This document shows positions 2,647 through 61,955 of a stretch of 64,000 nt of DNA, one piece after another; within the stretch, counting starts at the first letter, position 1; every line of letters begins with the position of its first letter. The translations under genes and the position numbers were made by a program. The notes under the pieces were generated by a model. The model was not told the DNA's origin. It ran no database searches and was given only the letters and a program-made list of their open reading frames with translations. Source of the stretch: Candidatus Omnitrophota bacterium (GTDB lineage Bacteria > Omnitrophota > Gorgyraeia > Gygaellales > Profunditerraquicolaceae); the NCBI GenBank assembly GCA_025453395.1, contig JALOQK010000002.1:21625-85624 (forward strand), in the 5' to 3' direction.

Positions 2647-2963
2647 TAGCCATAATATCTTCTGTAATTGTTATAATTAGTTCTATTGTGGTCACGCTTG
2701 TAAGTTTTAATCCTAATTTCCACAGTATGATGGAAAATGATTTCAAGCGTTCCGCGTTTAATAATGCATACCTATATAGCTGGGAGATAGCACAGCTTAA
2801 GGTGCGTTCTGGTCAGCTTACAAACACGAAAACCAAGATTAATGACTTGCCGCTTGGCTATTTAACTAAAAAAGGCGGTACTGAAGTGCAGAAATTCAAG
2901 ACCGATATAACCTTAAAGCCTGCCGATGGATCGCTTACTATCATTGTAGAGGAAGACAATTGA
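2643..2963 (+). CDS. small membrane-anchored protein, possibly a minor pseudopilin
   Basis: N-terminal hydrophobic segment IAIISSVIVIISSIVVTLV. Overlaps the upstream stop, so it is operonic with the pseudopilins. No Glu5. Confidence 0.3.
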   Translation: MIAIISSVIVIISSIVVTLVSFNPNFHSMMENDFKRSAFNNAYLYSWEIAQLKVRSGQLTNTKTKINDLPLGYLTKKGGTEVQKFKTDITLKPADGSLTIIVEEDN

Positions 2964-2996
2964 CAAGTCTCGCCTCTTTTCGTATAATAATTTTTC

Positions 2997-3605
2997 ATGA
3001 GAATAAAAGACTGTAAATCTTTGAGTTTGCTTTTGTTAGGTTTTTTCTTGTTGCCTGCATTGTTAACAGCCCAAGAAGCGCCTCAACGCTCTTTAGAGGC
3101 AATAGAGTTTTTTGCGGGTTACGGCTGGAATCAATTAAAGCCTTTCAAAGCTGGAGAACCAAGAAAAGATTACCGCCAAATCCCTTTATTAGCAGATTTT
3201 GATTTCAATCTTAAGAACTTCACCAAGAAAGTGGGGGTTAATCCTCCCGGTTTACTGCAATTTCAGGTTGAGCCATTTTTTTCTTTTGTTACAAGCCCGG
3301 ATAGAAATATAGAAACCGGCACCTCGTTTTTTATAAAAATCGGGATATTGCCCCAAACTTCCCGTATACAACCTTATATCAAAGCCGGGCCCGGTATGGT
3401 TTATATGACCCAGAATACCGCAGAACAGGGTACGAAATTTAATTTTATTGAAACCGGCGCTGCCGGATTTCATTTTTTCATAAATAAAAACACAGCCTTT
3501 AGCGCGGAATACAGGTTTCGCCATCTCTCCAATGCCGGGATAAAAGAACCTAACGGAGGCATTAATTCCCGTTTTGTCTTAGCCGGCGTAACATACCAAT
3601 ATTAA
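2997..3605 (+). CDS. outer-membrane beta-barrel protein, PagL-like lipid A deacylase candidate
   Basis: Signal peptide LLLLGFFLLPALLTAQEA. C-terminal ..EYRFRHLSNAG.. (H-x-S-N-A resembles the PagL catalytic motif). Ends in an aromatic residue (VTYQY), typical of OM barrels. Confidence 0.45.
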   Translation: MRIKDCKSLSLLLLGFFLLPALLTAQEAPQRSLEAIEFFAGYGWNQLKPFKAGEPRKDYRQIPLLADFDFNLKNFTKKVGVNPPGLLQFQVEPFFSFVTSPDRNIETGTSFFIKIGILPQTSRIQPYIKAGPGMVYMTQNTAEQGTKFNFIETGAAGFHFFINKNTAFSAEYRFRHLSNAGIKEPNGGINSRFVLAGVTYQY

Positions 3606-19172: not shown

Positions 19173-19173
19173 C

Positions 19174-44552: not shown

Positions 44553-44553
44553 T

Positions 44554-45186
44554 ATGGAATTGTATAAAATGAGCCTATGGAATATCTTTTTGGCTGGCGG
44601 CCCGGTAATGTGGCCGATACTTCTGTGTTCTATCTTTGCCTTGGCTATTATTCTGGAAAAGCTTTGGGACCTGCGCCGGATGAAGATAGACGAAGAGGGT
44701 ATCTTAAAAGGCATCTTGGATAAGATGAAGCATCATCAGGTCAAGGAGGCGCTGGAAATCTGCGATAAGACGGAAAGCCCGGTTACTAATATTTTAAAAG
44801 CCGGCATCCTGAAATATGACCGCCCCAGGGCCCAGATCAAAGAGGCCATTGAAGACGCTTCTTTGCATGAAATGCCGCGGCTGGAAAAGAACCTTTCCGC
44901 GTTAGCCACTATCGCGCATATATCCCCGCTTTTAGGGCTTTTAGGGACAGTTACCGGAATGGTCAGGTGCTTTCAGACTATCCAAGCTAAGGCTACAAGT
45001 TTTCATCCTGTGTCTCCTGGAGACCTGGCAGGGGGGATTTGGGAAGCGCTTCTTACTACTGTGGCAGGGTTGATCGTGGCGATACCGGCGTTTGTCGCTT
45101 ACAACTATCTGGTCAATAAGGTAAACAATTTTATTTTTGAAATGGAAAAAGCGGCCACGGAATTGGTAAATTTCTTAACCGAATAA
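44554..45186 (+). CDS. exbB: MotA/TolQ/ExbB family proton channel
   Basis: Three TM helices with the LLGLLGTVTGM signature. tolQ vs exbB cannot be distinguished. Confidence 0.8.
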   Translation: MELYKMSLWNIFLAGGPVMWPILLCSIFALAIILEKLWDLRRMKIDEEGILKGILDKMKHHQVKEALEICDKTESPVTNILKAGILKYDRPRAQIKEAIEDASLHEMPRLEKNLSALATIAHISPLLGLLGTVTGMVRCFQTIQAKATSFHPVSPGDLAGGIWEALLTTVAGLIVAIPAFVAYNYLVNKVNNFIFEMEKAATELVNFLTE

Positions 45187-45196
45187 AAGGCCGCTA

Positions 45197-45231
45197 TGCG
45201 TACCTTTGCCTATCTGAAGGCAAAGTACGCA
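45197..45231 (+). other. stable hairpin between exbB and exbD
   Basis: tgcgtacctttgcc tatctga ggcaaagtacgca, a 13-bp stem with one bulge and no T-run after it. Confidence 0.4.
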
Positions 45232-45259
45232 TTCACAAAGTCTATAGAAAGGTTTAACT

Positions 45260-45661
45260 ATGCGCTTTAGAAAACATATGAAATTAGAGCATGGGCTTAA
45301 GCAGATAGATATAGCCCCGCTTATAGATGTTGTTTTCCAGCTTCTTATATTTTTCATGCTTACTTCAAGTTTCGTGATACAGCCGGGGATCAAGGTAAAC
45401 CTGCCTAAGGCGGTGACAAGCGAGACACTGAAGGCGGAAAATATCGACATAGTTGTTTCTAATGAAAATGTGGTTTACTTAGACGGGAAAGTAGTTACCT
45501 TAGCGGAGCTAAAGAATATATTTAAGCGCGCCAGTTCCAAGAACAATTCTGTGTTGATTAAATCCGACAGAAGGGCATCTTTAGGCAGGATAGTTGAGAT
45601 TTGGGACATGGCCAGAGACGGCGGGATAACCCAGATTAATATCGCCACCAATCAGGAATGA
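45260..45661 (+). CDS. exbD: ExbD/TolR family protein
   Basis: IDIAPLIDVVFQLLIFFML single TM and a periplasmic domain. Confidence 0.8.
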   Translation: MRFRKHMKLEHGLKQIDIAPLIDVVFQLLIFFMLTSSFVIQPGIKVNLPKAVTSETLKAENIDIVVSNENVVYLDGKVVTLAELKNIFKRASSKNNSVLIKSDRRASLGRIVEIWDMARDGGITQINIATNQE

Positions 45662-46296
45662 GCGTTTGCCTTTGTTCCAGAAAAAGTTTTATTTTTTCAT
45701 TGGCAGGCCACATTTTTGTTTTTGCCGCTTTTTCATTTTCATTCGGCAGAATTCCGGTTGATTTAAGAGGTTTTAATGTTTCTTCTTTTGGGGGCATACT
45801 TAATAGATATGATTTGGCAGCTGAAGTTAAGCGCCCCTATCTGGATGTAAAGAAAGCTTTCTTGAAATCCCATTATTTTGTCCCCGCGCCAAGAATGGAA
45901 AACGCGGAAAACTTTTTAAATAACTACCACCTAAAACCCGCAGTTAAGCAGGGACTTATTTTTAGCTCTAATAAATCTTTTGCAGGGCTTTCAGGATCAG
46001 CCTCTTGCCCATATAAAAGAAAGATTCAGACTTCAACAGTAATACTGTATCCGCAGCTGCCGCATTACTTCGGTATTTATTTCCGCAATCAGCAAAAGGC
46101 GCACATTGAATTGGAGTATATGGTTACCCCCAGACAGATGGCCGGCTTTATTACCGTAAGGCGGAAGATCTCTTCCGGGGATTTGGAGATGGACCTTTTG
46201 TGCGCGCGTTATATAAGCCAGTATCTTTCTACCCAGCAGGATAAAATCTCGTCCGGTGTTTGGCATAAGGTAAAGATAGAATTGGGGGCTAAGTAA
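45658..46296 (+). CDS. membrane-anchored hypothetical protein in the TonB/TolA position
   Basis: N-terminal TM FIFSLAGHIFVFAAFSFSF, then ~180 aa without a Pro-rich linker. Overlaps the exbD stop. Confidence 0.3.
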   Translation: MSVCLCSRKSFIFSLAGHIFVFAAFSFSFGRIPVDLRGFNVSSFGGILNRYDLAAEVKRPYLDVKKAFLKSHYFVPAPRMENAENFLNNYHLKPAVKQGLIFSSNKSFAGLSGSASCPYKRKIQTSTVILYPQLPHYFGIYFRNQQKAHIELEYMVTPRQMAGFITVRRKISSGDLEMDLLCARYISQYLSTQQDKISSGVWHKVKIELGAK

Positions 46297-46517
46297 TGTT
46301 CACTTTGGATTTTTCATTAGCGCTTGGCTTGTATTGTTTGCTTTTCACGGTTGTGTCCCTGGTTTTCTGGCTTTGGAATAAGGCCCCTAAGAAACGCGTG
46401 CTTTCTCTGGAGGAGAAATATATCTGGTTTTGTTCTGTTTGCACGTACACTTATGTTAATACTAAAGAAGAGTTTATATCTATCTGCCCGCGTTGCGGCA
46501 ATTATAATAAAAAATAG
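46296..46517 (+). CDS. small membrane protein with C-terminal zinc ribbon
   Basis: TM LALGLYCLLFTVVSLVFWLW, then CSVC ..16 aa.. CPRC. Confidence 0.35.
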   Translation: MFTLDFSLALGLYCLLFTVVSLVFWLWNKAPKKRVLSLEEKYIWFCSVCTYTYVNTKEEFISICPRCGNYNKK

Positions 46518-46547
46518 TTGACGCGTCCGCTCGAAGTAGCTTATAAT
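46518..46547 (+). promoter_or_regulatory. near-consensus sigma70 promoter
   Basis: TTGACG, 17/18-nt spacer, TATAAT, about 50 nt upstream of the 46596 gene. Confidence 0.5.
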
Positions 46548-46595: not shown

Positions 46596-46802
46596 ATGAT
46601 CACTGAAATCGGAATTATTGCCGGAGATATCTGGCATTTCCTTGACCAGCACGGAGAGGTTTCTTTGGAAAATCTTGTCAAGGGCATAGATAAATCTCGT
46701 GATAATGTGCTGATGAGTTTAGGTTGGCTTGCCCGTGAGGGTCATGTCCTTGTGCAATCGCAAGGAAGCGGCTATACCGTGTGCTTAAGGAAAAATGATT
46801 AG
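46596..46802 (+). CDS. small winged-helix-like protein (DUF2582-like)
   Basis: 68 aa. IAGDIWHFLDQHGEVSLENLVKGI .. SLGWLAREGHV pattern recalled from small wHTH proteins. Ribosome-binding site aaggagg upstream. Confidence 0.4.
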   Translation: MITEIGIIAGDIWHFLDQHGEVSLENLVKGIDKSRDNVLMSLGWLAREGHVLVQSQGSGYTVCLRKND

Positions 46803-47193
46803 GGTCCATCTCCAAAGATCAAGCGTGCTGCTTGTTACCTTATTTATTGTGCTTATCGCGGTGATCTTGGCGCAGGTTATGTTATCTATTCTAAGAAGCC
46901 ACTCCCGCCTTTCCCATCATCAAGTAAGCAGGATCCAGGCCCAGTATGCTGCCATGGCAGGGGTGGTTTATGCTTATGATAGCTTAAGAAGTGGGCATTT
47001 GTCATCTAGCGATTGCCCAGAAGGTAATTCAAATCCAAAGTGCCGGGTAGATGATAATAATTTCCCCGTTTGCATAAAGGATAAAAGAGTAAAAATTATT
47101 CTTTGCCCCGCAGGCGCCACCTGTGCGGGTAAAACCTGCCCTGTCTCAAATAATCTCTGCATCTATTCTACCGCAGAGTATACCTATAATTAA
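46795..47193 (+). CDS. membrane-anchored Cys-rich protein of unknown function
   Basis: N-terminal TM VLLVTLFIVLIAVILAQV. C-terminal domain with 8 Cys (CPEGNSNPKC .. CIKD .. CPAGATCAGKTCP .. C). Confidence 0.35.
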   Translation: MIRVHLQRSSVLLVTLFIVLIAVILAQVMLSILRSHSRLSHHQVSRIQAQYAAMAGVVYAYDSLRSGHLSSSDCPEGNSNPKCRVDDNNFPVCIKDKRVKIILCPAGATCAGKTCPVSNNLCIYSTAEYTYN

Positions 47194-47290
47194 GTCTAAG
47201 TAAGTCTAAGTAAATCTATCGTATTTCTGTTAGTCATCTTTTCCGGCGGAGTATACTGCTATAAGTAAGTCCAAGTAAGTCTGCATAAAA
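47194..47290. repeat. TAAGTC-based short tandem repeats
   Basis: taagtctaagtaagtctaagtaaatcta .. taagtaagtccaagtaagtctg. Unit length differs from the 7-nt family. Confidence 0.6.
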
Positions 47291-47296
47291 AAACAC

Positions 47297-47325
47297 TTGA
47301 CAAAATAAGTTTTTGATGTTTTAAT
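47297..47325 (+). promoter_or_regulatory. sigma70-like promoter of the pilus assembly operon
   Basis: TTGACA, 17-nt spacer, TTTAAT, about 50 nt upstream of the HTH gene. Confidence 0.5.
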
Positions 47326-47375
47326 GAACTCCACTGTTATTTGAATAAGAATAAAGCAGAATACATAGGGATTAT

Positions 47376-47564
47376 ATGCCAAGACTTATAGACATTGATG
47401 AGTTAGCAGAATATCTGAAATTAAAGAAGCAGACGATTTATAATTGGCTGCACGAAAGAAAGATTTCAGGTATTAAGGTTGGCGGGGTCTGGAGATTTGA
47501 CCGCCGCGAGGTAGACGCCTGGCTTAGGAGCAGACGGCGTTTATCTACAACAGGAGATAAATAA
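47376..47564 (+). CDS. helix-turn-helix DNA-binding protein (excisionase/MerR-like HTH_17 family)
   Basis: LIDIDELAEYLKLKKQTIYNWLHERKISGIKVGGVWRFDRREVDAWL. Its stop overlaps the pilM start. Confidence 0.6.
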   Translation: MPRLIDIDELAEYLKLKKQTIYNWLHERKISGIKVGGVWRFDRREVDAWLRSRRRLSTTGDK

Positions 47565-49108
47565 TGGCCAATTCATTAGGGATTTATTTTGGCACAAGCC
47601 TTATAGCTTTAATAGAGGTAAAAGGGAAAAAGATCATTAAACAGATCAATATCCCACGCGCGCTTATTTCCGGGAAAGATCTGGAAGAAAAGGTCCCCGA
47701 AGAAGTTAAGATCGTGGCTTTCTTAAAAGAAGAATTACGCCGCAACAAAATTGAAGCCAAAGAAGCGATTATGTCATTGTCTGGGCAAGATATGATAATC
47801 CGCACCTTTGAAACGCCCGTTCTTCCTGCTGGTGAACTTGCCAGCGTGGTTAATTTTGAAGTCAAGAAGTACATCCCCTTTAAGACTGAAGATCTGGTAT
47901 CGGATTTTCAGGTCAAATTTGACCGCGCCAACCGCAAGAACAATGTATTATATACAGGCATTAAAAAAGAATCTTTGAATAAATACTTGGCGGTGGTGGA
48001 GCAGCTGGGGTTAAAGCTTATTAATATTGAATATGGGGGTTTTAGCCTCTTAAGGTTCATGCGCCTGACTAATCTTATGCAAAAAGGGATAGTAGGCGTA
48101 TTGAGCATGGATTTTTCTGAAGATGAAGAGATTAATTTCACGGTTGTCGAGGATGGATTCCCGCTTTTTAGCAGGGATATTACTCTTTCGTCGGTTAGCG
48201 AGGACTTGACCAGAAAAACTGAAATGTCCATGCCGCAGATAATAGAGAAATTAAAGACAGAGATCAGGATTTCTCTGGATTATTATAACCGGAAATTTCA
48301 GTCACGCAAAATCCAGAAGATGCTTTTCTTGTGCAATGATGAACAGCGGCATGATCTGGAACTATTGCTTAAAGAGATGCTTGTCCCGGCTGTTTTTGTG
48401 GACAGCCATAGGTATATCGGAAAGGCCAGGCATTACAGCTTAAGTTTTATAAAATGTTATGGCACCGCGATCATGAAATGCATCAAGGACAATATTAAGG
48501 TAAATATAATCTCGGCTAAGTCCAAGGCTTTTACGCAGAAAGAAAGAGAAATTGAAGATCAACTTGATTTCGGCGCGTTCTTCAGCGATTTTCAGGTTGA
48601 CCCAAAGTTTATCGCAATAGGCGTATTAGCTTGTTTGGGGATTTGGGGCTTGGGGCAATACCAGCAGTTTCCCGTAAGGCATGACCTTGATACGGTGATC
48701 TCTTTGAGGCCTCAGTTACCCAGTGTGGGCCCAAGCGCCACTTTGCAGAGTTTAGTTGATATGGAGCAGGAGAGCAAAAATAAAATTAATGCTTTGCACA
48801 AAGCAGTGATGCAGCAGCTATATCTTACGGATACCCTGGATGTCCTGCCGCGGCTTATCCCGGATGATATAATGCTTACGCGCATAAATTACAGAAAAGG
48901 TGAAAATAGCACAGAAGTAAACATTGACGGGATTGTTTTCTTAGGCGATAGCGACAAAGAGCGCAAGGAAGTTAACGCCTTTTTGGCAGCCTTAAAGCAG
49001 GATCCGTCTTTGAGCAGGGTTTTTAAGGAAATGTCTATTACCTATATAGACCATGCTACAATGGAAAAGGCCGAAGTCACAAAATTTAATCTTTTATTAA
49101 AAGGTTAG
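47564..49108 (+). CDS. pilM: type IV pilus assembly PilM-PilN fusion protein
   Basis: N-terminal actin-like ATPase fold pattern of PilM (~340 aa). Then TM helix FIAIGVLACLGIWGLGQY and a ~150-aa periplasmic PilN-like tail. Confidence 0.65.
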   Translation: MANSLGIYFGTSLIALIEVKGKKIIKQINIPRALISGKDLEEKVPEEVKIVAFLKEELRRNKIEAKEAIMSLSGQDMIIRTFETPVLPAGELASVVNFEVKKYIPFKTEDLVSDFQVKFDRANRKNNVLYTGIKKESLNKYLAVVEQLGLKLINIEYGGFSLLRFMRLTNLMQKGIVGVLSMDFSEDEEINFTVVEDGFPLFSRDITLSSVSEDLTRKTEMSMPQIIEKLKTEIRISLDYYNRKFQSRKIQKMLFLCNDEQRHDLELLLKEMLVPAVFVDSHRYIGKARHYSLSFIKCYGTAIMKCIKDNIKVNIISAKSKAFTQKEREIEDQLDFGAFFSDFQVDPKFIAIGVLACLGIWGLGQYQQFPVRHDLDTVISLRPQLPSVGPSATLQSLVDMEQESKNKINALHKAVMQQLYLTDTLDVLPRLIPDDIMLTRINYRKGENSTEVNIDGIVFLGDSDKERKEVNAFLAALKQDPSLSRVFKEMSITYIDHATMEKAEVTKFNLLLKG

Positions 49109-49121
49109 AACAGAGGGTTTT

Positions 49122-49643
49122 ATGCCGGTAAAAGATGCAAGCAAATATAAAGATTACCTGATCAATATAGTGGTTTTGGCTATTGCCGCGATTATTGGTT
49201 TTAAAATTTATATAAAGAGCAATCAGGATATAGATGCTTTAAAGAAAAGCATTGAAGAAGAAAAAAGCAAGAATAAGGTGCTGGCAAGCCTTGAGGAAAA
49301 AGAAAAAGAAATAAACGCCTACCGCAAATATCTTAATAGCAAAGAGATCACCGGCATTCTGGATGTTATTGGCGATATCGCGCGGGAGTCGGATATTGAG
49401 ATTGATTCTATGCGTCCTTCAGGAGAAAACAAATACTCTTTTTTCAAGAAATACTTATTTGATATAAGATGCTCCGCAGGCAGCTACCATGATATTGCCA
49501 GATTCATAAGCTATCTTGAGAGCAATAAAAATGTCTTTACGGTAGAAAGCGTGTCTTTAAGCCCCGAAGGATCAGGCGTGCAAAGACGGGTGGGTAGGGT
49601 TTTTGTGGAGATTTCCTTAAGCACAATTGTTTTGGTAAATTAA
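49122..49643 (+). CDS. pilO: PilO-like inner-membrane pilus alignment protein
   Basis: TM LINIVVLAIAAIIGF, a coiled-coil KKSIEEEKSKNKVLASLEEKEKE, then a ~100-aa periplasmic domain. Position is after pilMN. Confidence 0.5.
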   Translation: MPVKDASKYKDYLINIVVLAIAAIIGFKIYIKSNQDIDALKKSIEEEKSKNKVLASLEEKEKEINAYRKYLNSKEITGILDVIGDIARESDIEIDSMRPSGENKYSFFKKYLFDIRCSAGSYHDIARFISYLESNKNVFTVESVSLSPEGSGVQRRVGRVFVEISLSTIVLVN

Positions 49644-49653
49644 AGGTTAAGAT

Positions 49654-50154
49654 ATGGGAAAATATCCGGTCAAATTAAATTTTATAAATGAAATTATATT
49701 ATTTTGCATAATTTTGGGGATAGGTTCCACTGTTTTTGCCAATACTACTTCTAACACTATGAAGAAACTTATTGAAGGCGACGAAGAAAAAGAGGAAAAG
49801 GCCTATGATGTTAAGCGGCCGGCGGCTGAATATAAAGCTGCCAATTATAGAGATCCTTTCAGATTACAGCGCCAGGAGAAAGAAGAAACTAAAGAAACAA
49901 AGAAATACCAGGAGGAAGAGATAATCCCTCCGGATTTAGTCATACAGGGCGTGGTTTGGGGGGCCGCTACTCCGCAGGCGATAGTTAATGATAAAGTAGT
50001 CAAAAAAGGCGACATTATACAGGATGCGCATATTTTGGATATTACAAAAGAGGGTATAGATATTTTCTATCAGGGGGCACAGTTTCATATTTCCGCTCCG
50101 GCATCCGGAAGCGGCATATCCAAAAAGAAAAAAGAGGGAGGCACAAATGAATAA
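49654..50154 (+). CDS. pilP: PilP-like periplasmic/lipoprotein component
   Basis: Signal/anchor ILFCIILGIGSTVFA. Size and position between pilO and the secretin. Weak sequence evidence. Confidence 0.4.
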   Translation: MGKYPVKLNFINEIILFCIILGIGSTVFANTTSNTMKKLIEGDEEKEEKAYDVKRPAAEYKAANYRDPFRLQRQEKEETKETKKYQEEEIIPPDLVIQGVVWGAATPQAIVNDKVVKKGDIIQDAHILDITKEGIDIFYQGAQFHISAPASGSGISKKKKEGGTNE

Positions 50155-51649
50155 CCGCCGGAAATCATATATAAGCTTATTTTTTATCCTCGCGCTTATT
50201 TTCGCGCCTTCGGGGTTAAACGCGCAAATGGATATCCCGTTTGACAATCCTAATATTTTTATCTCCATGGATTTCCAGAATGCCTCTTTAAAAGATATTC
50301 TAAAGATTTTCTCTGTGCAGTCCGGGCTTAATTTTATCGCCTCGGAAAACGTGCAAGACAGAAAAGTGACCCTTTATATGGATAAGGTTGGGGTTAAAGA
50401 CGCCATGGATAAGATTTTTACCGCTAATAATCTTGTTTATGAGCTGGACAGGGAATCCAATATTTTTATCGTCAAGGACCTGGGAAAGCCCAAGACTGAA
50501 ACCGAAACCAAGGTTTTTCCGCTTAAATATGCCACGGTTTCAGGGTCAGCTTTTAACCGCGAAAAAAGCAGTGTTTCTACTACGGCAGGGGCAGCCGCAG
50601 GAGGATCTTCAGGCATTGCCGCGGCGGTAGCCAAGATAGTTACTGAGAATGGTTCAGTTATGGAAGATATCCGCACCAACAGCATTATTGTTACGGATGT
50701 GCCTAAGAATATGCCCAATATTATTCAGCTTGTGAATGCCCTGGATGTTTCAGTGCCGCAGGTGCTTTTGGAAGTGGAGATGTTGGACGTGAATAAAAAC
50801 TTGAGCGAAGCTTTGGGTGTAAAATACGGGCAGTCGCCCATGACTTTAAACGCGCTTTTTAAAGGCGGGACATTTCTCTCTAAATTTCCTTCAGGCAGCC
50901 CGTTCGGCACCGGGCAGAAAACTGGTTTTGGGTCTTTTGAAGTAAATAGCGGCAATGATGGCTCTGATATTAGCACTTATCAGGTGGTCTTAGATTTTCT
51001 AAAATCCCAGACCGATACTAAATTTCTTGCGCGGCCTAAGATCTTGACTTTAGACAATGAAACCGCGGAAATAAAGATCTCTACCCAGGAATCTGTGGGC
51101 ATTATTAATTCTACTACTAATACCGGCAATAGCTCCACAAGCACTACTACCAAAGAAGCGGAAAGATATGAAACCGGCGTAATCTTGAGGGTAACTCCAC
51201 AGGTCAACTTTAAAACCGGTGAAATTACCATGTTTGTTAATCCTAAGGTAAGCGAGGCTATTGCCGGCAATAGCATAACCGAAGGTAATACTGTTTATAC
51301 TTACCGCGACCCGGAAGAAAGAAGCACTAAATCTGTAGTCAGGATCCAAGATGGAGAAACCGTAGTTTTGGGAGGGCTTATCCGTAAAGAAAAAACAGAA
51401 ACTATCACTAAGCTGCCGTTTTTAGGGGATATTCCGGTTTTAGGGGCTTTGTTCCGCCATAAAAATATTTCCAAGGACAAGGAAAGAGAACTGCTTGTTT
51501 TTATCACTCCACACATCGTTAAAGACGCAAGCACCCAGCTTGCCAACGCGCAAGTTAAGCAAACCGGCTCTGCGTTAGGGGCCCCTGGCAATAAACGCGA
51601 GGCGATTATTACCGCAAGCCTGAATGCCTTTGAAAAGAAGAAAAGGTGA
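50147..51649 (+). CDS. pilQ: secretin (PilQ/GspD family), compact form
   Basis: Signal peptide, N0/N1-like domains, and secretin C-domain motifs VVLGGLIRKEKTETITKLPFLGDIPVLGALFRHK ..LLVFITPHIV. No AMIN domains. Confidence 0.8.
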   Translation: MNNRRKSYISLFFILALIFAPSGLNAQMDIPFDNPNIFISMDFQNASLKDILKIFSVQSGLNFIASENVQDRKVTLYMDKVGVKDAMDKIFTANNLVYELDRESNIFIVKDLGKPKTETETKVFPLKYATVSGSAFNREKSSVSTTAGAAAGGSSGIAAAVAKIVTENGSVMEDIRTNSIIVTDVPKNMPNIIQLVNALDVSVPQVLLEVEMLDVNKNLSEALGVKYGQSPMTLNALFKGGTFLSKFPSGSPFGTGQKTGFGSFEVNSGNDGSDISTYQVVLDFLKSQTDTKFLARPKILTLDNETAEIKISTQESVGIINSTTNTGNSSTSTTTKEAERYETGVILRVTPQVNFKTGEITMFVNPKVSEAIAGNSITEGNTVYTYRDPEERSTKSVVRIQDGETVVLGGLIRKEKTETITKLPFLGDIPVLGALFRHKNISKDKERELLVFITPHIVKDASTQLANAQVKQTGSALGAPGNKREAIITASLNAFEKKKR

Positions 51650-53394
51650 TCCCTGCTAAAATAAACAGTATGCCCAAAGAAAAATATTTAAGGTTAGGCG
51701 AGCTTCTGGTTAAAGAGGGCCTGATTACTCCTGCCCAGCTTGAGAAGATCATTATTATCCAGCGGCAGGAGGGCGGGCGCATGGGGGAACTTTTGATCCG
51801 CGAAGGCATGATCAAAGAAGAGCAGTTTGTGGTGGTTTTGGGCAAGCAGTTAGGCATACCTTTTTTTACCTTTGGTACCGGGATGTTAAAGCCGTCGGTC
51901 GATCAGGGGCTTGAAAGGCTTATCTCGCAGGATTTTGCTTTAAAAAACCTGGTTATCCCGCTTTCGCGCACGCTTAATTCTCTAAGTGTAGCTATGGTTG
52001 ACCCGCTGGATCTAATCTTAATAGACAATCTTAAAAAGCTTACCGGATGTGACATCAATCCGGTAATTGCCACTCGTTCTGATATTTTAAAATCAATAGA
52101 AGAATTCTATGGCAAGACCGGGATGTTAAACCGCGCGGTTCAGGATACTTATGATGACCAGTCCCAAGATAATAGGGTGAACACAATTGACCTTGCGGAT
52201 GAAGAATTAAGCTTAGATAAATTAGTTGCCCGCGCTGAAGAGGCGCCAGTTGTAAAGCTGGTGGATTTGATTATTCGTCAGGCCATAGATGAGCGCGCAT
52301 CGGATATTCATATTGAGCCGTTTAAGGACAGGATTTCCCTTCGTTATCGCATTGACGGCAAGCTCTATGAAATCCCCCCTCCGGCAAAATACCTGCACTT
52401 GCCGATCATCTCGCGTATTAAAATATTAAGTAAAATGGATATTGCCGAGAAAAGATTGCCGCAAGACGGCACGTTTCTGGTAAAAATGGAGGACAGGGTT
52501 GTAGATCTAAGAATTTCTACAATTCCTACTATCTACGGAGAAAAGATTGTTTTAAGAATCCTGGACCGAGGCTCTGTAGTTCTGGATTTAAATGTTTTAG
52601 GTATGGACGCCAAACAGCTGGAGGCGGTGCGCGCAGCTGCCGCTATGCCCTATGGCCTGATTTTTCTTACCGGCCCCACTGGAAGCGGCAAGACCACAAC
52701 GCTCTACGCGCTTTTAAACGAAATCAAAAGCCCCTCCAAGAATATAATCACTATTGAAGACCCGGTTGAGTATAAAATAGAGGGCATAAATCAAGTGCAG
52801 GTAAAGCCGGAAATCGGCTTAAATTTCGCAAACGCGCTTCGCTCTTTTCTAAGGCAGGACCCGGATATCATGCTGGTGGGCGAGGTGCGCGATTTAGAGA
52901 CCGCGCAGATTTGTATCCGCTCGGCATTAACCGGGCACTTGGTTTTAAGCACCCTTCACACCAATGACGCGCCTTCAGCAGTAAGCCGGCTTATGGACAT
53001 CGGGATTGAGTCGTATCTTTTGGCGCCGTCTCTTCTTTTAATCGTCGCCCAAAGGCTTATCCGCAGGCTCTGTCCGGACTGTAAAGAAGCTTATGAGCCT
53101 ACCCCGGAGCAGGTTAAGAAATTTAAGCTTACCGCCGAGCTTATTTATAAGCCAAGAGGCTGTTCCAAGTGCGCTCAAATCGGCTACAAGGGCAGGATAT
53201 CTGTGGCAGAGGTAATGAATACCAATGATGAATTAAAAACTTTGATTAATGAAGGGGTCCCCTATCAGAAGATCCGCGATGCCGCTAAAAAAGCCGGCAT
53301 GCAGACTTTGTATGATTCCGCGATCAAGAAAGTGGAGATGGGGCTTACTTCTTTGGAAGAGGCGCTTTCAGTTGCTATTGCCGCTGACTACTAG
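51646..53394 (+). CDS. pilB: type IV pilus / type II secretion assembly ATPase (PilB/GspE family)
   Basis: N-terminal T2SSE_N-like domain (LGELLVKEGLITPAQLEKIIIIQ..). Walker A GPTGSGKTTT, VGEVRD, and a tetracysteine motif CPDC..CSKC. Confidence 0.85.
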   Translation: MIPAKINSMPKEKYLRLGELLVKEGLITPAQLEKIIIIQRQEGGRMGELLIREGMIKEEQFVVVLGKQLGIPFFTFGTGMLKPSVDQGLERLISQDFALKNLVIPLSRTLNSLSVAMVDPLDLILIDNLKKLTGCDINPVIATRSDILKSIEEFYGKTGMLNRAVQDTYDDQSQDNRVNTIDLADEELSLDKLVARAEEAPVVKLVDLIIRQAIDERASDIHIEPFKDRISLRYRIDGKLYEIPPPAKYLHLPIISRIKILSKMDIAEKRLPQDGTFLVKMEDRVVDLRISTIPTIYGEKIVLRILDRGSVVLDLNVLGMDAKQLEAVRAAAAMPYGLIFLTGPTGSGKTTTLYALLNEIKSPSKNIITIEDPVEYKIEGINQVQVKPEIGLNFANALRSFLRQDPDIMLVGEVRDLETAQICIRSALTGHLVLSTLHTNDAPSAVSRLMDIGIESYLLAPSLLLIVAQRLIRRLCPDCKEAYEPTPEQVKKFKLTAELIYKPRGCSKCAQIGYKGRISVAEVMNTNDELKTLINEGVPYQKIRDAAKKAGMQTLYDSAIKKVEMGLTSLEEALSVAIAADY

Positions 53395-53411
53395 AATAAA
53401 AGGAATAAATT

Positions 53412-54650
53412 ATGGCAAAATTTTTCTATACTGTGCGCGATTCAAGAGGGGTAAAGCATAGCGGCACTGAAGAAGGCACCAATGAGGAAGATGTAGTAAG
53501 CCGGCTTCAGGCAAAAGGTTTTCTAGTGGTAGGCCTTGTGCATGAAAGCAAGCAATCTGCCGCAGGGTTGCAGGCGGATAAAACTCCTACAAGTAGAGGT
53601 AAGTTTAAGCATTACGGGGTTTCAGGCGATGACTTGGTGCTTTTTTGCCGGCAGTTGGCCACGCTTTTAGGAGCAGGCGTAACTATTCTAAAAAGTGTTG
53701 ATATAATTTGCCTGCAGATTTCAAGCCGGGGTTTATATAAAGTATTGAAAAAGGTTTCTTCGGATATGCAGGCAGGTTTAAGCCTGCACGAAGCGCTCTC
53801 TCGGCATCCGCAGGTTTTTTCTGAACTTTGGGTTAACCTGGTAGAAAGTGGAGAGGCAAGCGGTAACTTGGCAATGGTGCTTTCGCGTTTGGCAGGATAC
53901 CTTGAAAGAAACGCCGCCTTTAGAAGAAGGATAATCTCCGCTCTTCTGTATCCTATTATTCTTATGGTTGCCGGCTTAGGCGCGCTATTATTTCTAACCC
54001 TTAAAATAATCCCCACTTTCGCCGAGTTGTTTAAGGGGTTTAATGTGGAGCTTCCTTTTCTTACTAAGGTCCTTATATCTTTTAGTGAAGGCCTGCGGCA
54101 TAGTTTCCTATTTATTATCGTCGTAGCTGTATTAGGCGGGTATCTTTTAAGAAAATACCTCAAAACCAGAAAAGGCCGCAGGCAGTATGAAGAGCTTCTT
54201 TTTAAATCTCCGATTTTCGGGGATTTTATCAAGGGGCTGGTGGTGGAGCGGTTTTCTTCAGAGATGTCAACGCTTGTGGAAAGCGGAGTGCCGATACTTT
54301 ATTCGCTTGAAATTGCCGAGCATAGCGTGGGCAACTTAGTTATGGCGGATATTATCCATCAAATTAAAGAAGATGTCAGAGACGGCAAGCCTTTAAGTTA
54401 TCCTCTTGAGAAAAGTAATTTCTTTGAGCCGATGGTGATTCAAATGGTGGCTATCGGAGAAGAAATAGGAGAACTGCCGCAGATGTTCAAGAAAATAAAT
54501 CTTTTTTACCAGGAATATGTGGAGACATTCTTGACCCGTTTTGCTTCTATGTTTGAGCCGATCATGCTTATTGTGATGGGGGTGATTATCGGGGTTATTG
54601 TTATCGGGATGTTCTTGCCAATATTTAGCATAAGCAGGATTGGCGGGTAA
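53412..54650 (+). CDS. pilC: platform protein PilC/GspF
   Basis: Two GspF repeats and three TM segments. Position is after the ATPase. Confidence 0.85.
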   Translation: MAKFFYTVRDSRGVKHSGTEEGTNEEDVVSRLQAKGFLVVGLVHESKQSAAGLQADKTPTSRGKFKHYGVSGDDLVLFCRQLATLLGAGVTILKSVDIICLQISSRGLYKVLKKVSSDMQAGLSLHEALSRHPQVFSELWVNLVESGEASGNLAMVLSRLAGYLERNAAFRRRIISALLYPIILMVAGLGALLFLTLKIIPTFAELFKGFNVELPFLTKVLISFSEGLRHSFLFIIVVAVLGGYLLRKYLKTRKGRRQYEELLFKSPIFGDFIKGLVVERFSSEMSTLVESGVPILYSLEIAEHSVGNLVMADIIHQIKEDVRDGKPLSYPLEKSNFFEPMVIQMVAIGEEIGELPQMFKKINLFYQEYVETFLTRFASMFEPIMLIVMGVIIGVIVIGMFLPIFSISRIGG

Positions 54651-54672
54651 AGGTAAAAGGTTAATTAAGGTA

Positions 54673-54700
54673 TTGACAACAAAGAATTTAAGGTTAAAAT
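54673..54700 (+). promoter_or_regulatory. sigma70-like promoter ahead of the pilin genes
   Basis: TTGACA, 16-nt spacer, TAAAAT. An additional gttataat lies downstream. Ribosome-binding site aaggag. Confidence 0.5.
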
Positions 54701-54755
54701 ATATTTTAGGTAAACGTTATAATAAAATAGAAATTAACATAAGAAAGGAGTAGTT

Positions 54756-55169
54756 ATGAAAAAAGGTTTTACGCTGTTGGAATTAATTGTAGTTATCATC
54801 ATCATCGGGGTTTTGGCAACATTGGGGTTTGTGCAGTATGTTAATATGATTGAAAAAGGCAGAAGAGCTGAAGCGCGCACGAATTTGGGTATGTTGCGTA
54901 CTTTGCAGATGGCTTATCATCAGGAGCATAGTACTGCCTACGCGGCAATAGGTGATTTGCAATCTGGTTTACCTGCTGCAACCGGTACTGGCGATCACAC
55001 TTGTACTAATGCTAATTTCTATTTTGAATATTTTTGTGATGCTACTGGTGGCACTGTTCCTGGTACCTGTTATGCAATGAGATGTGCCTCGGGCGGTAAG
55101 GATCCTGTAACTGGCACTACTTCTGTAATTTCGCTTAGTGTAGATGGAGCAGGTGGAAACGATTGGTAA
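54756..55169 (+). CDS. type IV pilin (candidate major pilin)
   Basis: MKKG-FTLLELIVVIIIIGVLA canonical class III signal with Glu5. 137 aa. Four C-terminal Cys (disulfide-bonded region). Confidence 0.75.
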   Translation: MKKGFTLLELIVVIIIIGVLATLGFVQYVNMIEKGRRAEARTNLGMLRTLQMAYHQEHSTAYAAIGDLQSGLPAATGTGDHTCTNANFYFEYFCDATGGTVPGTCYAMRCASGGKDPVTGTTSVISLSVDGAGGNDW

Positions 55170-55176
55170 TCAATGG

Positions 55177-55596
55177 ATGAGTATGAAATCGCGTGGTTAC
55201 ACGCTACTTGAAATCGTCATAGTGGTTGTGATTGTGGGGATTTTGGTAAGCTTAGGTTTGGTTAATTACACCAATGTCCGGGAAAGGGCTCTGGGCAAAG
55301 AGGCAAGGGCGACCTTGAAGCTTATTGCCGCGGCAGAGAGAATCTACCGTATGGAAACAGGGCTGTATCTTATTCCAGGAAATGCTGTTCCAGCTAGGGC
55401 AGCTAATGATTTAGCTTACATTAATAGTATGCTAAAGCTTGCCATCCCTCAATCAAACAACGCTTGGGGATATAGTATTACTTCAACTACTAATCCTGCT
55501 ATTTCTGAATTTGACGCGCAGGCCGCAAGAGCAGCGTGCACCTATAAGATGACTCAAGGTGATGATGAACCCAGTGATTCGGGGACATGTTATTAA
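55177..55596 (+). CDS. type IV pilin-like protein with G-YTLLE junction
   Basis: MSMKSRG-YTLLEIVIVVVIVGILV with Tyr at +1. C-terminal Cys pair. A terminator hairpin follows. Confidence 0.65.
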   Translation: MSMKSRGYTLLEIVIVVVIVGILVSLGLVNYTNVRERALGKEARATLKLIAAAERIYRMETGLYLIPGNAVPARAANDLAYINSMLKLAIPQSNNAWGYSITSTTNPAISEFDAQAARAACTYKMTQGDDEPSDSGTCY

Positions 55597-55618
55597 AGTT
55601 TTGTTAGTTTAAACAAAT

Positions 55619-55654
55619 AAAGGGGGTATCGTAAGATGCCCCCTTTATTATTAT
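55619..55654 (+). terminator. terminator-like hairpin after the second pilin gene
   Basis: aaaggggg tatcgtaagat cccccttt followed by attattat. Confidence 0.5.
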
Positions 55655-55666
55655 GGGTAGAATTAT

Positions 55667-56026
55667 ATGAAGAATAAAGCCATGACCTTACTTGAAATCT
55701 TAATCGCGGTTTTGATTATCGCCATTACCGTCGGAGGGCTGGTTGCTGTTTTTGTAAGTTCCCGCGGGTTCATAGAGCATTCCCGTTCCCGTTTGCAGGC
55801 AGCGCAGTTATCCAAATACTATATTGATCAATTACATGGGTTTGTGCGCCAGGATTCATGGAATACCGCAAGTAACCAGCTATATGATGGAGCTGCTCCT
55901 TCCTATTCAACAACTTTTTCCGGGGTAACATATAATGTGACTTCTGTAGTGGACGCTGTTGATCCCGTAAATCCGGGAGGGTTGCGCCGGGTAGTCACAA
56001 AAATAAAGTGGACAGAGCCAAAATGA
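55667..56026 (+). CDS. minor pilin-like protein (A-MTLLE junction)
   Basis: MKNKA-MTLLEILIAVLIIAITVGGLVAV with Glu5 present but Ala at -1 and Met at +1. Confidence 0.55.
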   Translation: MKNKAMTLLEILIAVLIIAITVGGLVAVFVSSRGFIEHSRSRLQAAQLSKYYIDQLHGFVRQDSWNTASNQLYDGAAPSYSTTFSGVTYNVTSVVDAVDPVNPGGLRRVVTKIKWTEPK

Positions 56027-56679
56027 AGATTAACCCTAATAGGTCAGTTACTCTTTTGGAATTATTGATGAGCCTGCTTATCATGAGTATTGTTTTAGCC
56101 GCCTTAACAAGTATCAATACTTTTATTAATCACAACGCTTTATCCAGTGACAGAAGATCTAAGCTGCAGAATGAAGTATCTTATACTTTAGAGCATATGA
56201 CTAAAGAAATAGGCAAGGCGCGGGGCAATGAGGTTGCTTCTGGCGCGGGCAAGGTTTTAGCAATTACGGCAAGCGCTTCTGCAGGGGGGCAAGTAATAAG
56301 GTTTTTAGCTAATGATAATGATTATGCTGTTCCGGGAAACTGGGCAGCGTATCTTTACATTCCTCAGGGTTATCCAAATAGTTATCAAATACGTTATTGT
56401 GAGAAGTGCGCTGATACGGATTGTAATTCTTGCAGTTTTCCTGCTTCCTGGGCAGCTTTACCTGCTAATTACATTATCGCCCGGAAGGTAAAAGTATTTG
56501 TGCCTGATAAGCCGATGATAAATGACCCTTCTGATCAACGTTTGAATCAAAATTATTTTAGCGTTAGGATTACTTCTTGTTGGGATCCGGCGCTTGCTTC
56601 TCCGCCTGACGGCACATCGGAAAATCCCTGCATTACCATGGAAACCCGCATGAAGATGCCCTCGGTTTCTACCCATTAG
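56023..56679 (+). CDS. minor pilin-like protein (S-VTLLE junction)
   Basis: MKINPNRS-VTLLELLMSLLIMSIVLAAL. ATGA start/stop overlap with the upstream gene. Several Cys in the C-terminal domain. Confidence 0.55.
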   Translation: MKINPNRSVTLLELLMSLLIMSIVLAALTSINTFINHNALSSDRRSKLQNEVSYTLEHMTKEIGKARGNEVASGAGKVLAITASASAGGQVIRFLANDNDYAVPGNWAAYLYIPQGYPNSYQIRYCEKCADTDCNSCSFPASWAALPANYIIARKVKVFVPDKPMINDPSDQRLNQNYFSVRITSCWDPALASPPDGTSENPCITMETRMKMPSVSTH

Positions 56680-56680
56680 A

Positions 56681-56900
56681 AAAGCGCAAAACTAAAAGCG
56701 CAAAGCGTAAATCGATAATCCAAAATTCAAAATTTTTAATTTTACGCTATAGTTTTACCTGCCTGCCGGCAAGGCAGGCGTTTTTCGCTTTACATTTTAC
56801 GCTATATAAGACAAAAATCGTCTAACTTTTATGTATTTGGCTGATAGCTGAAAGCTGATAGCTGATAGCTGAAAGCTGATATAATTTGACTGAACTTATG
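56681..56900. repeat. family A heptad-periodic palindromic element plus GCTGATA repeats (copy 1)
   Basis: aaaagcg caaaact aaaagcg caaagcg taaatcg ataatcc aaaattc aaaattt ttaattt tacgcta tag .., inner hairpin ctgcctgccggcaaggcaggcg, then gctgata gctgaaa gctgata gctgata gctgaaa gctgata. Confidence 0.8.
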
Positions 56901-60860: not shown

Positions 60861-61349
60861 ATGTTTAAAAGATTGTTCTGTCTGGTTGTTATTTTTATTC
60901 TTCCGGCAATAGTTTTTGCTTTAGAGGAACAGATTACGGTTACAACTTATTATCCCAGCCCCTATGGCTCATACGCGGAACTGCGTTCAAAGAAAATGGT
61001 AATTGGAGCTACCTATATAAAAGAAAGTACTTTGCCAACTTCTTCTGTTGCGGATAGTAATTTAATAGTAGAAGGAAATGTTGGTATTGGGATAACAGCT
61101 CCGGTAGCAAAGTTGGAGGTGAATGGTGCTGCTATAATTCAGGGTAATGCCGTAATTAATAATGGTGCTAATATCATGAATGGCCTGCAAACTGATCAAC
61201 TTAGAGTTATGAGTACAGTCCAATTCCCTTTCCCCCCACCCGGTCCGGTTGGTTCTAGTATTTTATGTGTAAAAAATGGTGGTTTTATCGGAACCTGTAA
61301 TCCTACTATAAATGGAGGTACTAATACGTTTACATGTATTTGTAACTAA
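60861..61349 (+). CDS. small secreted Cys-containing protein with tail-fibre-like repeat motif
   Basis: Signal peptide LFCLVVIFILPAIVFA. Motif EGNVGIGITAPVAKLEVNG resembles the xVGIGTTxPxxKLxVxG motif of phage tail-fibre / endosialidase-chaperone-associated proteins. C-terminus has 5 Cys. Confidence 0.45.
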   Translation: MFKRLFCLVVIFILPAIVFALEEQITVTTYYPSPYGSYAELRSKKMVIGATYIKESTLPTSSVADSNLIVEGNVGIGITAPVAKLEVNGAAIIQGNAVINNGANIMNGLQTDQLRVMSTVQFPFPPPGPVGSSILCVKNGGFIGTCNPTINGGTNTFTCICN

Positions 61350-61520
61350 TCATTCCAATATAGCCTGCATAGATAAATTTATGCATTTATTTGTAAGATT
61401 GCCTTCTTTTTTGCGTCTAATAGCGTAAGAGAGGAGGTTTTTTATGTCTACCATTAAAGTGTCAAGTTAAATCCCAAATCCAAATAATACCAAATCCCGG
61501 ATTGTCTGGTATGAGTAAAT

Positions 61521-61590
61521 GACGGTAGCGAAAAGTGTAAAGCGAAAAATGTAAAAGTATAATTTAAAATTAAAAACAGAAAGAGAGAAA
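61521..61590. repeat. family A element fragment (copy 4)
   Basis: agcgaaaagtgtaaagcgaaaaatgtaaaagtataatttaaaattaaaaac. Confidence 0.6.
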
Positions 61591-61955
61591 TGAACAGCCA
61601 GAATTTGAAATTAAAAGATAGGGCATATCAGTATTCTGTAAAAATAATTGAGTTTCTGGATATATTACCCAAAGATACATCAACCCAGGTTATTTTGAAG
61701 CAACTATTAAGGTCAGCTACTTCTATAGGAGCAAATATTATTGAAGCACAGGCCTCAAGCTCAAAGAGAGATTTTACTAATTTCTTCAGTTATTCTCTTA
61801 AATCTGCTAATGAGAGTTTGTATTGGTTGAGTTTATTAAAAGATGCTAGGAAAGTAGGTAATCCTCAATTAGGGTATCTTTTGGTTGAAACTCAAGAATT
61901 AGCAAATATACTAGCAGCGAGTATTTTGACCTTAAAAGGTAAGAATAAGTTTTGA
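61590..61955 (+). CDS. four-helix-bundle protein (TIGR02436 / 23S rRNA intervening-sequence protein family)
   Basis: ..AYQYSVKIIEFLDILPKD .. LLRSATSIGANIIEAQ .. SLKSANESLYWLSLLKD pattern of this family. Confidence 0.7.
   Translation: MNSQNLKLKDRAYQYSVKIIEFLDILPKDTSTQVILKQLLRSATSIGANIIEAQASSSKRDFTNFFSYSLKSANESLYWLSLLKDARKVGNPQLGYLLVETQELANILAASILTLKGKNKF

Follow-up and report, generated by a model that had tools for sequence, protein, structure and literature searches.

A probable type IVa pilus-class assembly locus typical of the Omnitrophota

Which class of type IV filament machine is encoded by a compact gene block of a Candidatus Omnitrophota bacterium? The block lies within a stretch of 64,000 nucleotides of contig JALOQK010000002.1 (assembly GCA_025453395.1), hereafter called the window, and comprises 11 open reading frames (ORFs), all co-directional on the + strand, at positions 47376-56679. 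These coordinates agree with an initial annotation of the same DNA, which listed a small helix-turn-helix (HTH) gene, a PilM-PilN fusion, PilO, a PilP-like protein, a secretin, a PilB/GspE-type ATPase, PilC, and four pilin-like genes. Every gene on this list was recovered in place by the ORF listing in combination with Pfam and NCBIfam, and the profile searches that the annotation had proposed returned matches to PilM_2, PilN, PilO, Secretin, T2SSE, and T2SSF. The filament class had been considered not assignable between a type IVa pilus (T4aP), a type II secretion system (T2SS), a competence pilus, and a mannose-sensitive haemagglutinin (MSHA) pilus. We are fairly confident that the locus represents a lineage-typical T4aP-class (PilMNOPQ/PilBC) assembly system of Omnitrophota, which is organized in three adjacent transcription units. 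The earlier caution is justified for the ATPase core, but other components do discriminate. The assignment is based on the PilM fold with an INLL-type motif, the co-linearity of the secretin with PilQ, the greater likeness of the platform protein to PilC than to GspF, and the full-length PilB-type architecture of the ATPase; it is further based on PilX_N matches in orthologues of an upstream pilin, an HR domain in the protein at the PilP position, and reports of T4aP in the phylum by TXSScan. The genes of the assembly machinery are as follows:

47564..49108, +, PilM-PilN fusion of 514 aa (Pfam PilM_2 and PilN, AlphaFold2 model, Foldseek)
49122..49643, +, PilO (Pfam PilO 2.7e-9; syntenic in relatives)
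49654..50154, +, protein of 166 aa at the PilP position with a C-terminal HR (secretin-N0-binding) domain (Pfam matches of orthologues)
50147..51649, +, PilQ-type secretin of 500 aa with signal peptide, N0, one N domain, and secretin domain (Pfam, NCBIfam, and PDB matches)
51646..53394 (probable start 51670), +, extension ATPase of PilB architecture (T2SSE 7e-135, MshEN, PDB matches), with an MshEN pair at aa 16-68 (51691-51849), Walker A at aa 343, and a tetracysteine motif at aa 476-509 (53071-53172)
53412..54650, +, PilC platform protein (T2SSF 5e-59; Myxococcus xanthus PilC 243 bits, full length)

In the fusion protein, Pfam placed PilM_2 at residues 6-208 and PilN at residues 424-510, and an AlphaFold2 model (mean predicted local distance difference test, pLDDT, 83) revealed an actin-like domain, an INLL-type linker motif, a transmembrane (TM) helix, a coiled coil, and a ferredoxin-like domain. 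Foldseek aligned the first 300-odd residues with PilM of Pseudomonas aeruginosa, Thermus thermophilus, and M. xanthus at E-values of 1e-19 to 1e-16; the top structures were the PilM entries 5eou, 2ych, and 3jc8. Next, by a wide margin, came FtsA and the EpsL/GspL cytoplasmic domain at about 1e-9 (1e-9 to 1e-8 over a shorter alignment for EpsL/GspL), and the Pfam family T2SSL gave no match in the fusion protein. The linker behind the PilM domain carries a conserved K-[IV]-[ND]-L-L at residues 312-316, which we take to be the counterpart of the INLLP peptide that sits at the N-terminus of free PilN and docks onto PilM (complexes 2ych and 5eou). Judged by PilM fold, linker motif, TM helix, coiled coil, and ferredoxin-like domain, the modelled protein is a complete PilM and PilN fused head to tail, with a GspL-like topology but without orthology to GspL. 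Its family comprises 728 database members of about 510-525 aa, designated as 'pilus assembly protein PilM' where they are named. PilM, PilN, and PilO, as expected for a T4aP, are hence all present, with the first two on one polypeptide. As a side observation, plasmid pMESIL02 of Allomeiothermus silvanus carries a compact pilus locus with a PilF-like ATPase, PilT, PilO, a secretin, a small HR-like protein, and a protein of 509 aa that could be a similar PilM-PilN-type fusion (hhalign E 0.053, weak PilN-domain match); we did not use this protein as evidence.

The fused topology also leads to a rival reading, i.e., a non-retractile T2SS-like machine in which folded proteins (hydrolases or adhesins, for instance) would be pushed out via the secretin by a short periplasmic pseudopilus. 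The fusion indeed copies the topology of GspL (PMC10191384), but its cytoplasmic part is a full-size PilM with the PilN docking motif instead of the shorter GspL fold. The protein at the PilP position is likewise two-sided. By itself it gave only a weak T2SSB match, with no significant PilP match and no lipobox Cys, and its orthologues matched T2SSB (18/19, 2.8e-8), CdsD_C (14/19), PilP (4/19), and T2SSC (2/19). Since all of these are secretin-N0-binding HR-type domains, an HR domain can be assigned to it. The T2SSB/T2SSC matches outnumber those to PilP, which favors a T2SS-like machine, but no PDZ-bearing GspC was found. For the secretin, Pfam returned STN (weak), Secretin_N (one domain only), and Secretin, and neither an AMIN domain nor a lipobox was found within the 500 aa. 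The protein covered positions 4-428 of the 428 positions of the NCBIfam PilQ model, with a score under the subfamily cut-off, and its best PDB match was PilQ of Neisseria meningitidis (122 bits, residues 38-463). These residues are co-linear with the N0-N1-secretin part of PilQ from Neisseria, Myxococcus, Vibrio, and Pseudomonas. In contrast, the GspD alignment begins only at residue ~105-171, and the GspD model scored 213.8 against a cut-off of 351. The secretin has N0 and one N domain as in PilQ, not N0-N3 as in GspD. Regarding the platform protein, the first cytoplasmic domain reached 88 bits with Thermus PilC versus 54-56 bits with GspF domains, and the GspF model scored 345 against a cut-off of 424. 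While PilC and a PilQ secretin (without AMIN) could be identified, the hallmarks of a T2SS were missing, namely a truncated GspL, a GspD with N0-N3, and equivalogs of GspE and GspF. T2SS-like loci have been reported beside giant genes of Omnitrophota; however, those contain rcpC, which points to a different, Tad-like system, and no giant gene or secreted hydrolase adjoins the locus described here. We consider a T2SS-like machine unlikely.

For the ATPase, ATG 51670 is the probable start codon, since MPKEKY is the N-terminal sequence of its orthologues. Its tetracysteine motif (C476-P-D-C ... C506-S-K-C) was found in all of the at least 120 orthologues listed, whose database names are inconsistent (TadA, GspE, PilB, and generic labels). 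PilB and GspE cannot be told apart by the ATPase core alone. The core is 47-54% identical to PilB, GspE, and unclassified references alike, and the NCBIfam scores for PilB (TIGR02538, 606.6 with a cut-off of 675.65) and GspE (591.7 with a cut-off of 630) both stayed under their cut-offs. A T2SS-like machine gains from this, as the core is as near to GspE (49-52% identity) as to PilB. The best solved matches were full-length M. xanthus PilB (497 bits) and Geobacter PilB (488 bits). The PilB alignments run from residue 15-16 to the C-terminus and follow the layout of MshEN, N2, and a C-terminal domain with Zn-finger.

The N-terminus of the ATPase suggests how the machine may be controlled. The MshEN motif for binding of cyclic di-GMP (c-di-GMP) consists of two 24-residue units of the type RLGxx(LVI)(LVI)xxG(LVI)(LVI)xxxxLxxxLxxQ, separated by a 5-residue spacer (PMC5013675). 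Residues 16-39 (RLGELLVKEGLITPAQLEKIIIIQ) and 45-68 (RMGELLIREGMIKEEQFVVVLGKQ) with the 5-residue spacer RQEGG fit this published pair, and both halves are intact. NCBIfam NF053729 scored 58.6 bits with a cut-off of 38. By the strict pattern, both halves are kept in 58 of the 120 listed orthologues and one half in 48 more. Control of the ATPase by c-di-GMP is therefore a prediction from its sequence. Between 44 and 58 kb, tRNA-Ala was the only Rfam match (E <= 1), which means no known RNA family in the leader, c-di-GMP riboswitches included.

In Vibrio, the msh genes are arranged as mshIJKL...EG, followed by mshBACD. The order of the present locus parallels this arrangement, which brings in an MSHA-type (type IVe, T4eP) pilus with msh gene order as another reading. 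The genes form a single locus as in MSH systems (PMC6668835), the MshEN pair is intact, and no pilT is nearby. However, MshEN domains are also present in the ordinary PilB of Myxococcus, Thermus, and others, and MSH has been reported from a few Proteobacteria only. Moreover, no MshM- or MshN-like gene lies between secretin and ATPase, whose genes overlap, and the MshL model reached 142.5 bits with a cut-off of 250, the lowest score of the three secretin models (PilQ, GspD, MshL). By this gene content, i.e., the lack of MshM and MshN and the low MshL score, we exclude an MSHA-type pilus, which is very improbable.

The pilin genes complete the T4aP-class set:

46795..47193, +, PilX/GspK-class minor pilin of 132 aa, the fifth pilin, without Glu5 (GspK N-terminus 1.3e-5 and ComGG 1.2e-3, NCBIfam)
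54756..55169, +, pil1, probable major pilin, MKKG|FTLLE (N_methyl 1.4e-6; N-terminal matches to PilA and GspG models)
55144..55596, +, pil2, GspG/GspH/FimU-like class pilin (N_methyl 5e-6; GspG and GspH matches)
55667..56026, +, pil3, PilV/GspI-like minor pilin (TIGR02523 PilV 4.4e-7)
56008..56679 (probable start 56023), +, pil4, PilW/GspJ/PpdC-like minor pilin (N_methyl 4.9e-5; PRK10557 1.7e-5; ComGF)

For pil4, position 56023 is probably the start, as in the JGI gene call. The PilX-like protein has a hydrophobic N-terminus with a conserved SRIQAYYAA motif; in its family, the first 70 aa are conserved, and the C-terminal part, rich in Cys, varies. Its match to the N-terminus of GspK would also suit a T2SS-like machine, and Pfam PilX_N was matched by 6/17 of its orthologues (best 1.5e-6). 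By sequence class, the PilX-like protein together with pil2, pil3, and pil4 accounts for all four of the usual minor pilins (H-, I-, J-, and K-like), so that a major pilin and the four core minor pilins of a T4aP are all represented. A separate pseudopilin cluster, previously placed at 1195-2963, does exist, but forms only the end of a larger cluster of ten genes, which begins 3.3 kb ahead of the window (-3275..2963 in window coordinates). This second cluster comprises three pilins (150, 132, and 157 aa), a 106-aa ORF, two large pilin-like proteins (287 and 192 aa), a 525-aa Cys-rich membrane-anchored protein without family match, and two paralogous secreted proteins (234-237 aa). It may be a source of pilus-tip adhesins.

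The lead pilin of the second cluster has a precomputed Pfam match to ComP_DUS, which bears on the question of whether the same T4aP-class machine serves mainly as a DNA-uptake (competence) pilus. T4aP systems serving transformation are classed as T4aP, and the short AMIN-less secretin resembles competence secretins of the HofQ type (NF010083, 150 bits). However, this score is far under the cut-off of 554, ComP_DUS matches on generic pilins are weak evidence, and comEA, comEC, and dprA were not seen in the region read. A predominant role in DNA uptake is thus rather unlikely, though conceivable.

If the locus is of the T4aP class, how peculiar is it? We compared it with 25 related loci from a scan with the fusion protein, one genome per species of the GTDB. 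All of them are from metagenome-assembled genomes of Omnitrophota (3/25 were deposited as 'uncultured Planctomycetales'), and their fusion proteins are 37-48% identical to that of the window. By tblastn with the window proteins, gene order was constant in each related locus on a long enough contig. The first part comprises MotA/ExbB, ExbD, a 212-aa protein, and a 73-aa zinc-ribbon membrane protein (in most loci); the middle part comprises a DUF2582 winged-helix gene, the 132-aa PilX-like gene, a gap, and the 62-aa HTH gene; and the last part is formed by PilMN, PilO, the protein at the PilP position, secretin, ATPase, PilC, pilins, and a Memo-AMMECR1 gene. Identities of the relatives to the window proteins (tblastn) were:

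62-aa HTH protein, 70-87%
ATPase, 68-78%
PilC, 53-69%
secretin, 44-60%
PilMN, 37-48%
pilins, 26-54%

Four features of the locus are variants: the PilM-PilN fusion, the AMIN-less secretin, the organization in a single block, and the BldC-like HTH gene with a repeat operator, to which we return below. The initial annotation had called the locus non-canonical, and such features are indeed present; since the fusion family (728 members) and the gene order (25 loci) recur across Omnitrophota, they are the norm of this lineage rather than special to this genome. By TXSScan, 135/141 Velamenicoccia and the majority of genomes in the other Omnitrophota classes have been reported to encode T4aP (PMC10066038), and a compact T4aP-class locus agrees with the kind already reported at phylum level (PMC10066038). 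A tblastn search of PilMN against a plasmid collection gave no matches.

The pilus locus is flanked by ExbB/ExbD on the upstream side and by tRNA-Ala (56959) and the Memo-AMMECR1 gene on the downstream side. The arrangement of a 'symbiotic F-type ATPase next to T4aP' that has been described for Omnitrophota is absent here. Directly upstream, 42045-46517 encodes an 835-aa TPR protein, MotA/ExbB, ExbD, the 212-aa protein, and the 73-aa membrane zinc-ribbon protein, of which ExbB through the zinc-ribbon protein hold the same position in most, not all, related loci. The ORF of the 212-aa protein (45658-46296) occupies the TonB position; its Pfam search gave no match, and we left it unnamed.

As previously noted, the window encodes no prepilin peptidase, no PilT/PilU retraction ATPase, and no PilY1. 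For this check, most + strand ORFs of at least 110 aa were searched with Pfam and the remainder were judged by translation or contig gene calls; neither Peptidase_A24 nor PilT/PilU nor PilY1 was found among them. By exact protein matches, the window also maps, in reversed orientation, to contig Ga0392394_0000003 of JGI metagenome 3300037461, and identical proteins occur on an NCBI contig labelled Candidatus Omnitrophica. On the JGI contig, the genes called in the flanks that were read, about 7 kb on the upstream and 9 kb on the downstream side, likewise included none of these families; they comprise genes for synthesis of fatty acids and the beginning of the second pilin cluster upstream, and htrA, recX, alaS, and his genes downstream. 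Because all pilins have class III signal peptides, a prepilin peptidase is required. For two other Omnitrophota genomes, KEGG orthologs of pilB, pilC, pilD (K02654), pilM, and pilT (K02669), but not pilN, have been listed (PMC10066038). This means that pilT and pilD exist in the phylum, and the missing pilN in both genomes fits a fused PilMN.

Several observations weigh against a T4aP-class assignment. Within the ~80 kb of contig read (window and flanks), neither pilT nor pilD was found; the lack of pilT, together with the placement of all genes in a single locus, is also in favor of a T2SS-like machine. A textbook T4aP has neither a single-locus organization nor a PilM-PilN fusion, which are features of T2SS and MSHA (PMC6668835, PMC10191384), and both secretin and ATPase score under every NCBIfam equivalog cut-off. 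Furthermore, the ATPase tree (neighbour-joining, 18 sequences, 329 core columns, PilT as outgroup) included no MshE reference, and in this tree the Omnitrophota ATPases fall outside the PilB clade of Myxococcus, Geobacter, and Acinetobacter (clade support 100%). They form a clade of their own (100% support), sister to a clostridial PilB-like protein (84%), and also lie outside the GspE clade (83%); the deep nodes that place them relative to GspE carry 13-32% support. The initial annotation had proposed that nesting of ATPase and secretin in canonical T4aP clades would mark an ordinary T4aP locus, and for the ATPase, this small tree showed no nesting within PilB. One may suspect a separate type IV filament branch, i.e., a single-operon, PilM-PilN-fused, PilT-less system that left the T4aP stem in parallel to T2SS and MSHA, is switched on by c-di-GMP and by a dedicated BldC-like, repeat-binding protein, and enables ultra-small cells to hold on to their hosts. 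We give this possibility only a small chance and retain the T4aP class as the preferred reading.

How such a T4aP-class locus may be expressed was addressed by analysis of the intergenic DNA and the two small regulator genes. The initial annotation had overlooked the two genes at 46596-47193 (winged-helix protein and PilX-like fifth pilin), the ATPase motif for c-di-GMP, and the repeats of the putative operator. The regulatory features are:

46518..46547, +, promoter P1 (TTGACG, 18 nt, TATAAT) of the winged-helix and PilX-like genes (consensus scan 11/12)
46596..46802, +, winged-helix protein of 68 aa, DUF2582, candidate second regulator (Pfam DUF2582 9.7e-15)
47187..47215, +, distal operator candidate, three tandem 10-bp TAAGTAAGT-type units
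47262..47280 (about -70 to -52), +, proximal operator candidate, two tandem 10-bp units TAAGTAAGTC / CAAGTAAGTC (nearly invariant in 25 loci)
47289..47325, +, promoter P2 with A-tract, -35 TTGACA at 47297-47302, 17-nt spacer with TG, and extended -10 TTTAAT at 47320-47325 (footprint in 25 loci)
47376..47564, +, BldC/Xis-like winged-helix protein of 62 aa, first operon gene, putative autoregulator (HTH_17 2e-16; excisionase TIGR01764 56.9 bits)
54673..54700, +, promoter P3 (TTGACA, 16 nt, TAAAAT) of the pilin genes (consensus scan 11/12)
56758..56790, +, terminator-like GC-rich hairpin with T run, likely end of the pilin transcript (8 pairs, 6 G-C)

Two of these promoters, P2 and P3, had been proposed before and are real in the sense that they are conserved (P2 in 25 loci, a P3 counterpart after pilC in 10/11 loci). 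The start coordinate assigned to the pilus block at that time, 47297, is the -35 box of P2. In most related loci, a P1 counterpart of the form GTTGAC(A/C), ~17 nt, TAnAAT stands at the same place before the winged-helix gene. Wherever a related locus extends into the upstream flank, the DUF2582 protein itself is encoded in syntenic position with 67-79% identity; its gene overlaps the PilX-like gene by 8 nt and is translationally coupled to it. Within the 183-bp gap before the HTH gene, the P2 region is a nearly invariant AGTAAGTnTAAGTAAGTnTATATAAAAAAACAC-TTGACA-(17 nt ending TGn)-TTTAAT in 25 loci, although the proteins of the same loci are only 40-80% identical, and the 15-mer AAAAACACTTGACAA at P2 is unique in the window. 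Upstream of P2, five copies of the TAAGTAAGT unit form two blocks 65 bp apart that are conserved across the 25 Omnitrophota loci. At the distal operator position, the relatives carry TTATAAT-CTAAGTAAGTYT-ATTATAA. The exact TAAGTAAGT 9-mer occurs nowhere else in the 64-kb window, and AGTAAGT reaches 4.5/kb in the 450 nt upstream of the HTH gene versus 0.06/kb elsewhere in the loci (~70-fold), always on the coding (+) strand.

A candidate for binding these repeats is the 62-aa HTH protein, which is 79-93% identical in more than 120 clusters. Its AlphaFold2 model (pLDDT 86) superimposed best on BldC-DNA complexes (root-mean-square deviation, rmsd, 1.5-1.9 Å; TM score 0.72-0.81), and the next best folds were Pukovnik Xis, RdfS, and another excisionase; Foldseek E-values were weak (~0.03), as the domain is small. 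BldC and recombination directionality factors (RDFs) bind as head-to-tail multimers to direct repeats that are one helical turn apart (PMC5859096, PMC7498355). Given this binding mode, the BldC/excisionase-like fold, and the conserved direct repeats in its own promoter, we propose that the HTH protein putatively binds the 10-bp TAAGTAAGT repeats and autoregulates the operon. The DUF2582 protein or another factor is an alternative candidate binder of the repeats, which tells against this part of our interpretation. Two other readings of the HTH gene were rejected. A prophage excisionase does not apply, as no integrase is present and every relative has this gene in first position of its pilus operon. 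A match to a MADS1 defence HTH (70.5 bits with a cut-off of 80) reflects generic HTH_17 similarity, and no defence genes are adjacent.

Taken as a T4aP-class system, the locus might work as follows. P1 would drive the DUF2582 winged-helix gene and the PilX-like minor pilin; P2 would drive the 62-aa BldC/Xis-like HTH gene, followed by pilMN, pilO, pilP, pilQ, pilB, and pilC; and P3 would drive the major pilin and three minor pilins. The fusion keeps the PilN peptide for docking into PilM, and PilO and the HR-domain protein are positioned to connect the inner-membrane complex with the short AMIN-less PilQ secretin. Binding of c-di-GMP at the N-terminus of the ATPase may switch on filament extension, and the four minor pilins may prime assembly. 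Sitting head to tail on the TAAGTAAGT repeats at about -70 to -52 and on a second site 65 bp upstream, the HTH protein would bring about autoregulation. The prepilin peptidase, and probably PilT, would be encoded elsewhere in the genome. The product would be a pilus for attachment to surfaces or host cells, possibly also for DNA uptake, in an ultra-small bacterium.

Omnitrophota are uncultivated, mostly ultra-small bacteria that are suspected to live attached to other cells or to prey on them, and pili are the main candidate for the attachment organ. Our analysis pins down the standard architecture of their pilus locus, exposes the inconsistent naming of its ATPase in databases (TadA, GspE, PilB), and adds the prediction of c-di-GMP control. 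It also provides a very well conserved module of promoter, operator, and small regulator, which can be tested in vitro without cultivation. It reveals no new kind of machine.

Regarding other features of the window, all credible genes over about 80 kb (window and flanks) lie on the + strand, which is an unusually long co-directional stretch, and GC skew is positive in every 2-kb bin, with a monotonic rise of the cumulative skew. The RecG helicase (5183-7321) contains an internal, insertion-like tandem peptide repeat of ~3 SAISRQP copies, the third of which is degenerate. The region 19129-22592 encodes a 534-aa membrane protein without Pfam match and a 620-aa DUF2079 membrane protein, with a strongly negative AT skew (-0.25). 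Just before recA, 60861-61955 encodes a 162-aa secreted protein without family match, followed by a four-helix protein of the 23S rRNA-intervening-sequence type.

Compared to known systems, the 62-aa HTH protein shares the MerR-like winged-helix fold, which lacks a dimerisation coiled coil, and the size of a monomeric HTH with BldC of Streptomyces and with the Xis/RDF excisionases Pukovnik Xis, RdfS, and Apl (rmsd 1.5-2.3 Å). Unlike these developmental regulators and recombination factors, it is encoded by the first gene of a pilus operon, and in contrast to the excisionases it has no integrase or att site nearby. With the MSHA system of Vibrio cholerae (MshI...MshE), the locus has in common the compact order, a fused PilM/N-type gene, and the MshEN domain on the ATPase, but it lacks MshM, MshN, and MshF, its secretin is not MshL-like, and its phylum lies outside the Proteobacteria. 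T2SS (GspC-M, especially GspL) resemble it by the single operon, the fusion of an actin-like domain, TM helix, and periplasmic ferredoxin-like domain, the tetracysteine ATPase, and the lack of a retraction ATPase in the locus; the locus differs from them by its full PilM, its secretin without N2 and N3, the missing PDZ-bearing GspC, and the GspE, GspD, and GspF cut-offs, which were not reached. In comparison with the T4aP of M. xanthus, Geobacter, and T. thermophilus (PilMNOPQ, PilBC, PilA, and minor pilins), PilM and PilN form one polypeptide, the secretin has no AMIN domain, and the genes form a single block of 10 kb with a small HTH gene in front and no pilT, pilD, or pilY1 nearby. The full component set, however, is shared with these pili, as are the domain layout of the ATPase, the PilM fold with the PilN docking motif, the N0-N1-secretin core of PilQ, and five pilins with one of the PilX class among them.

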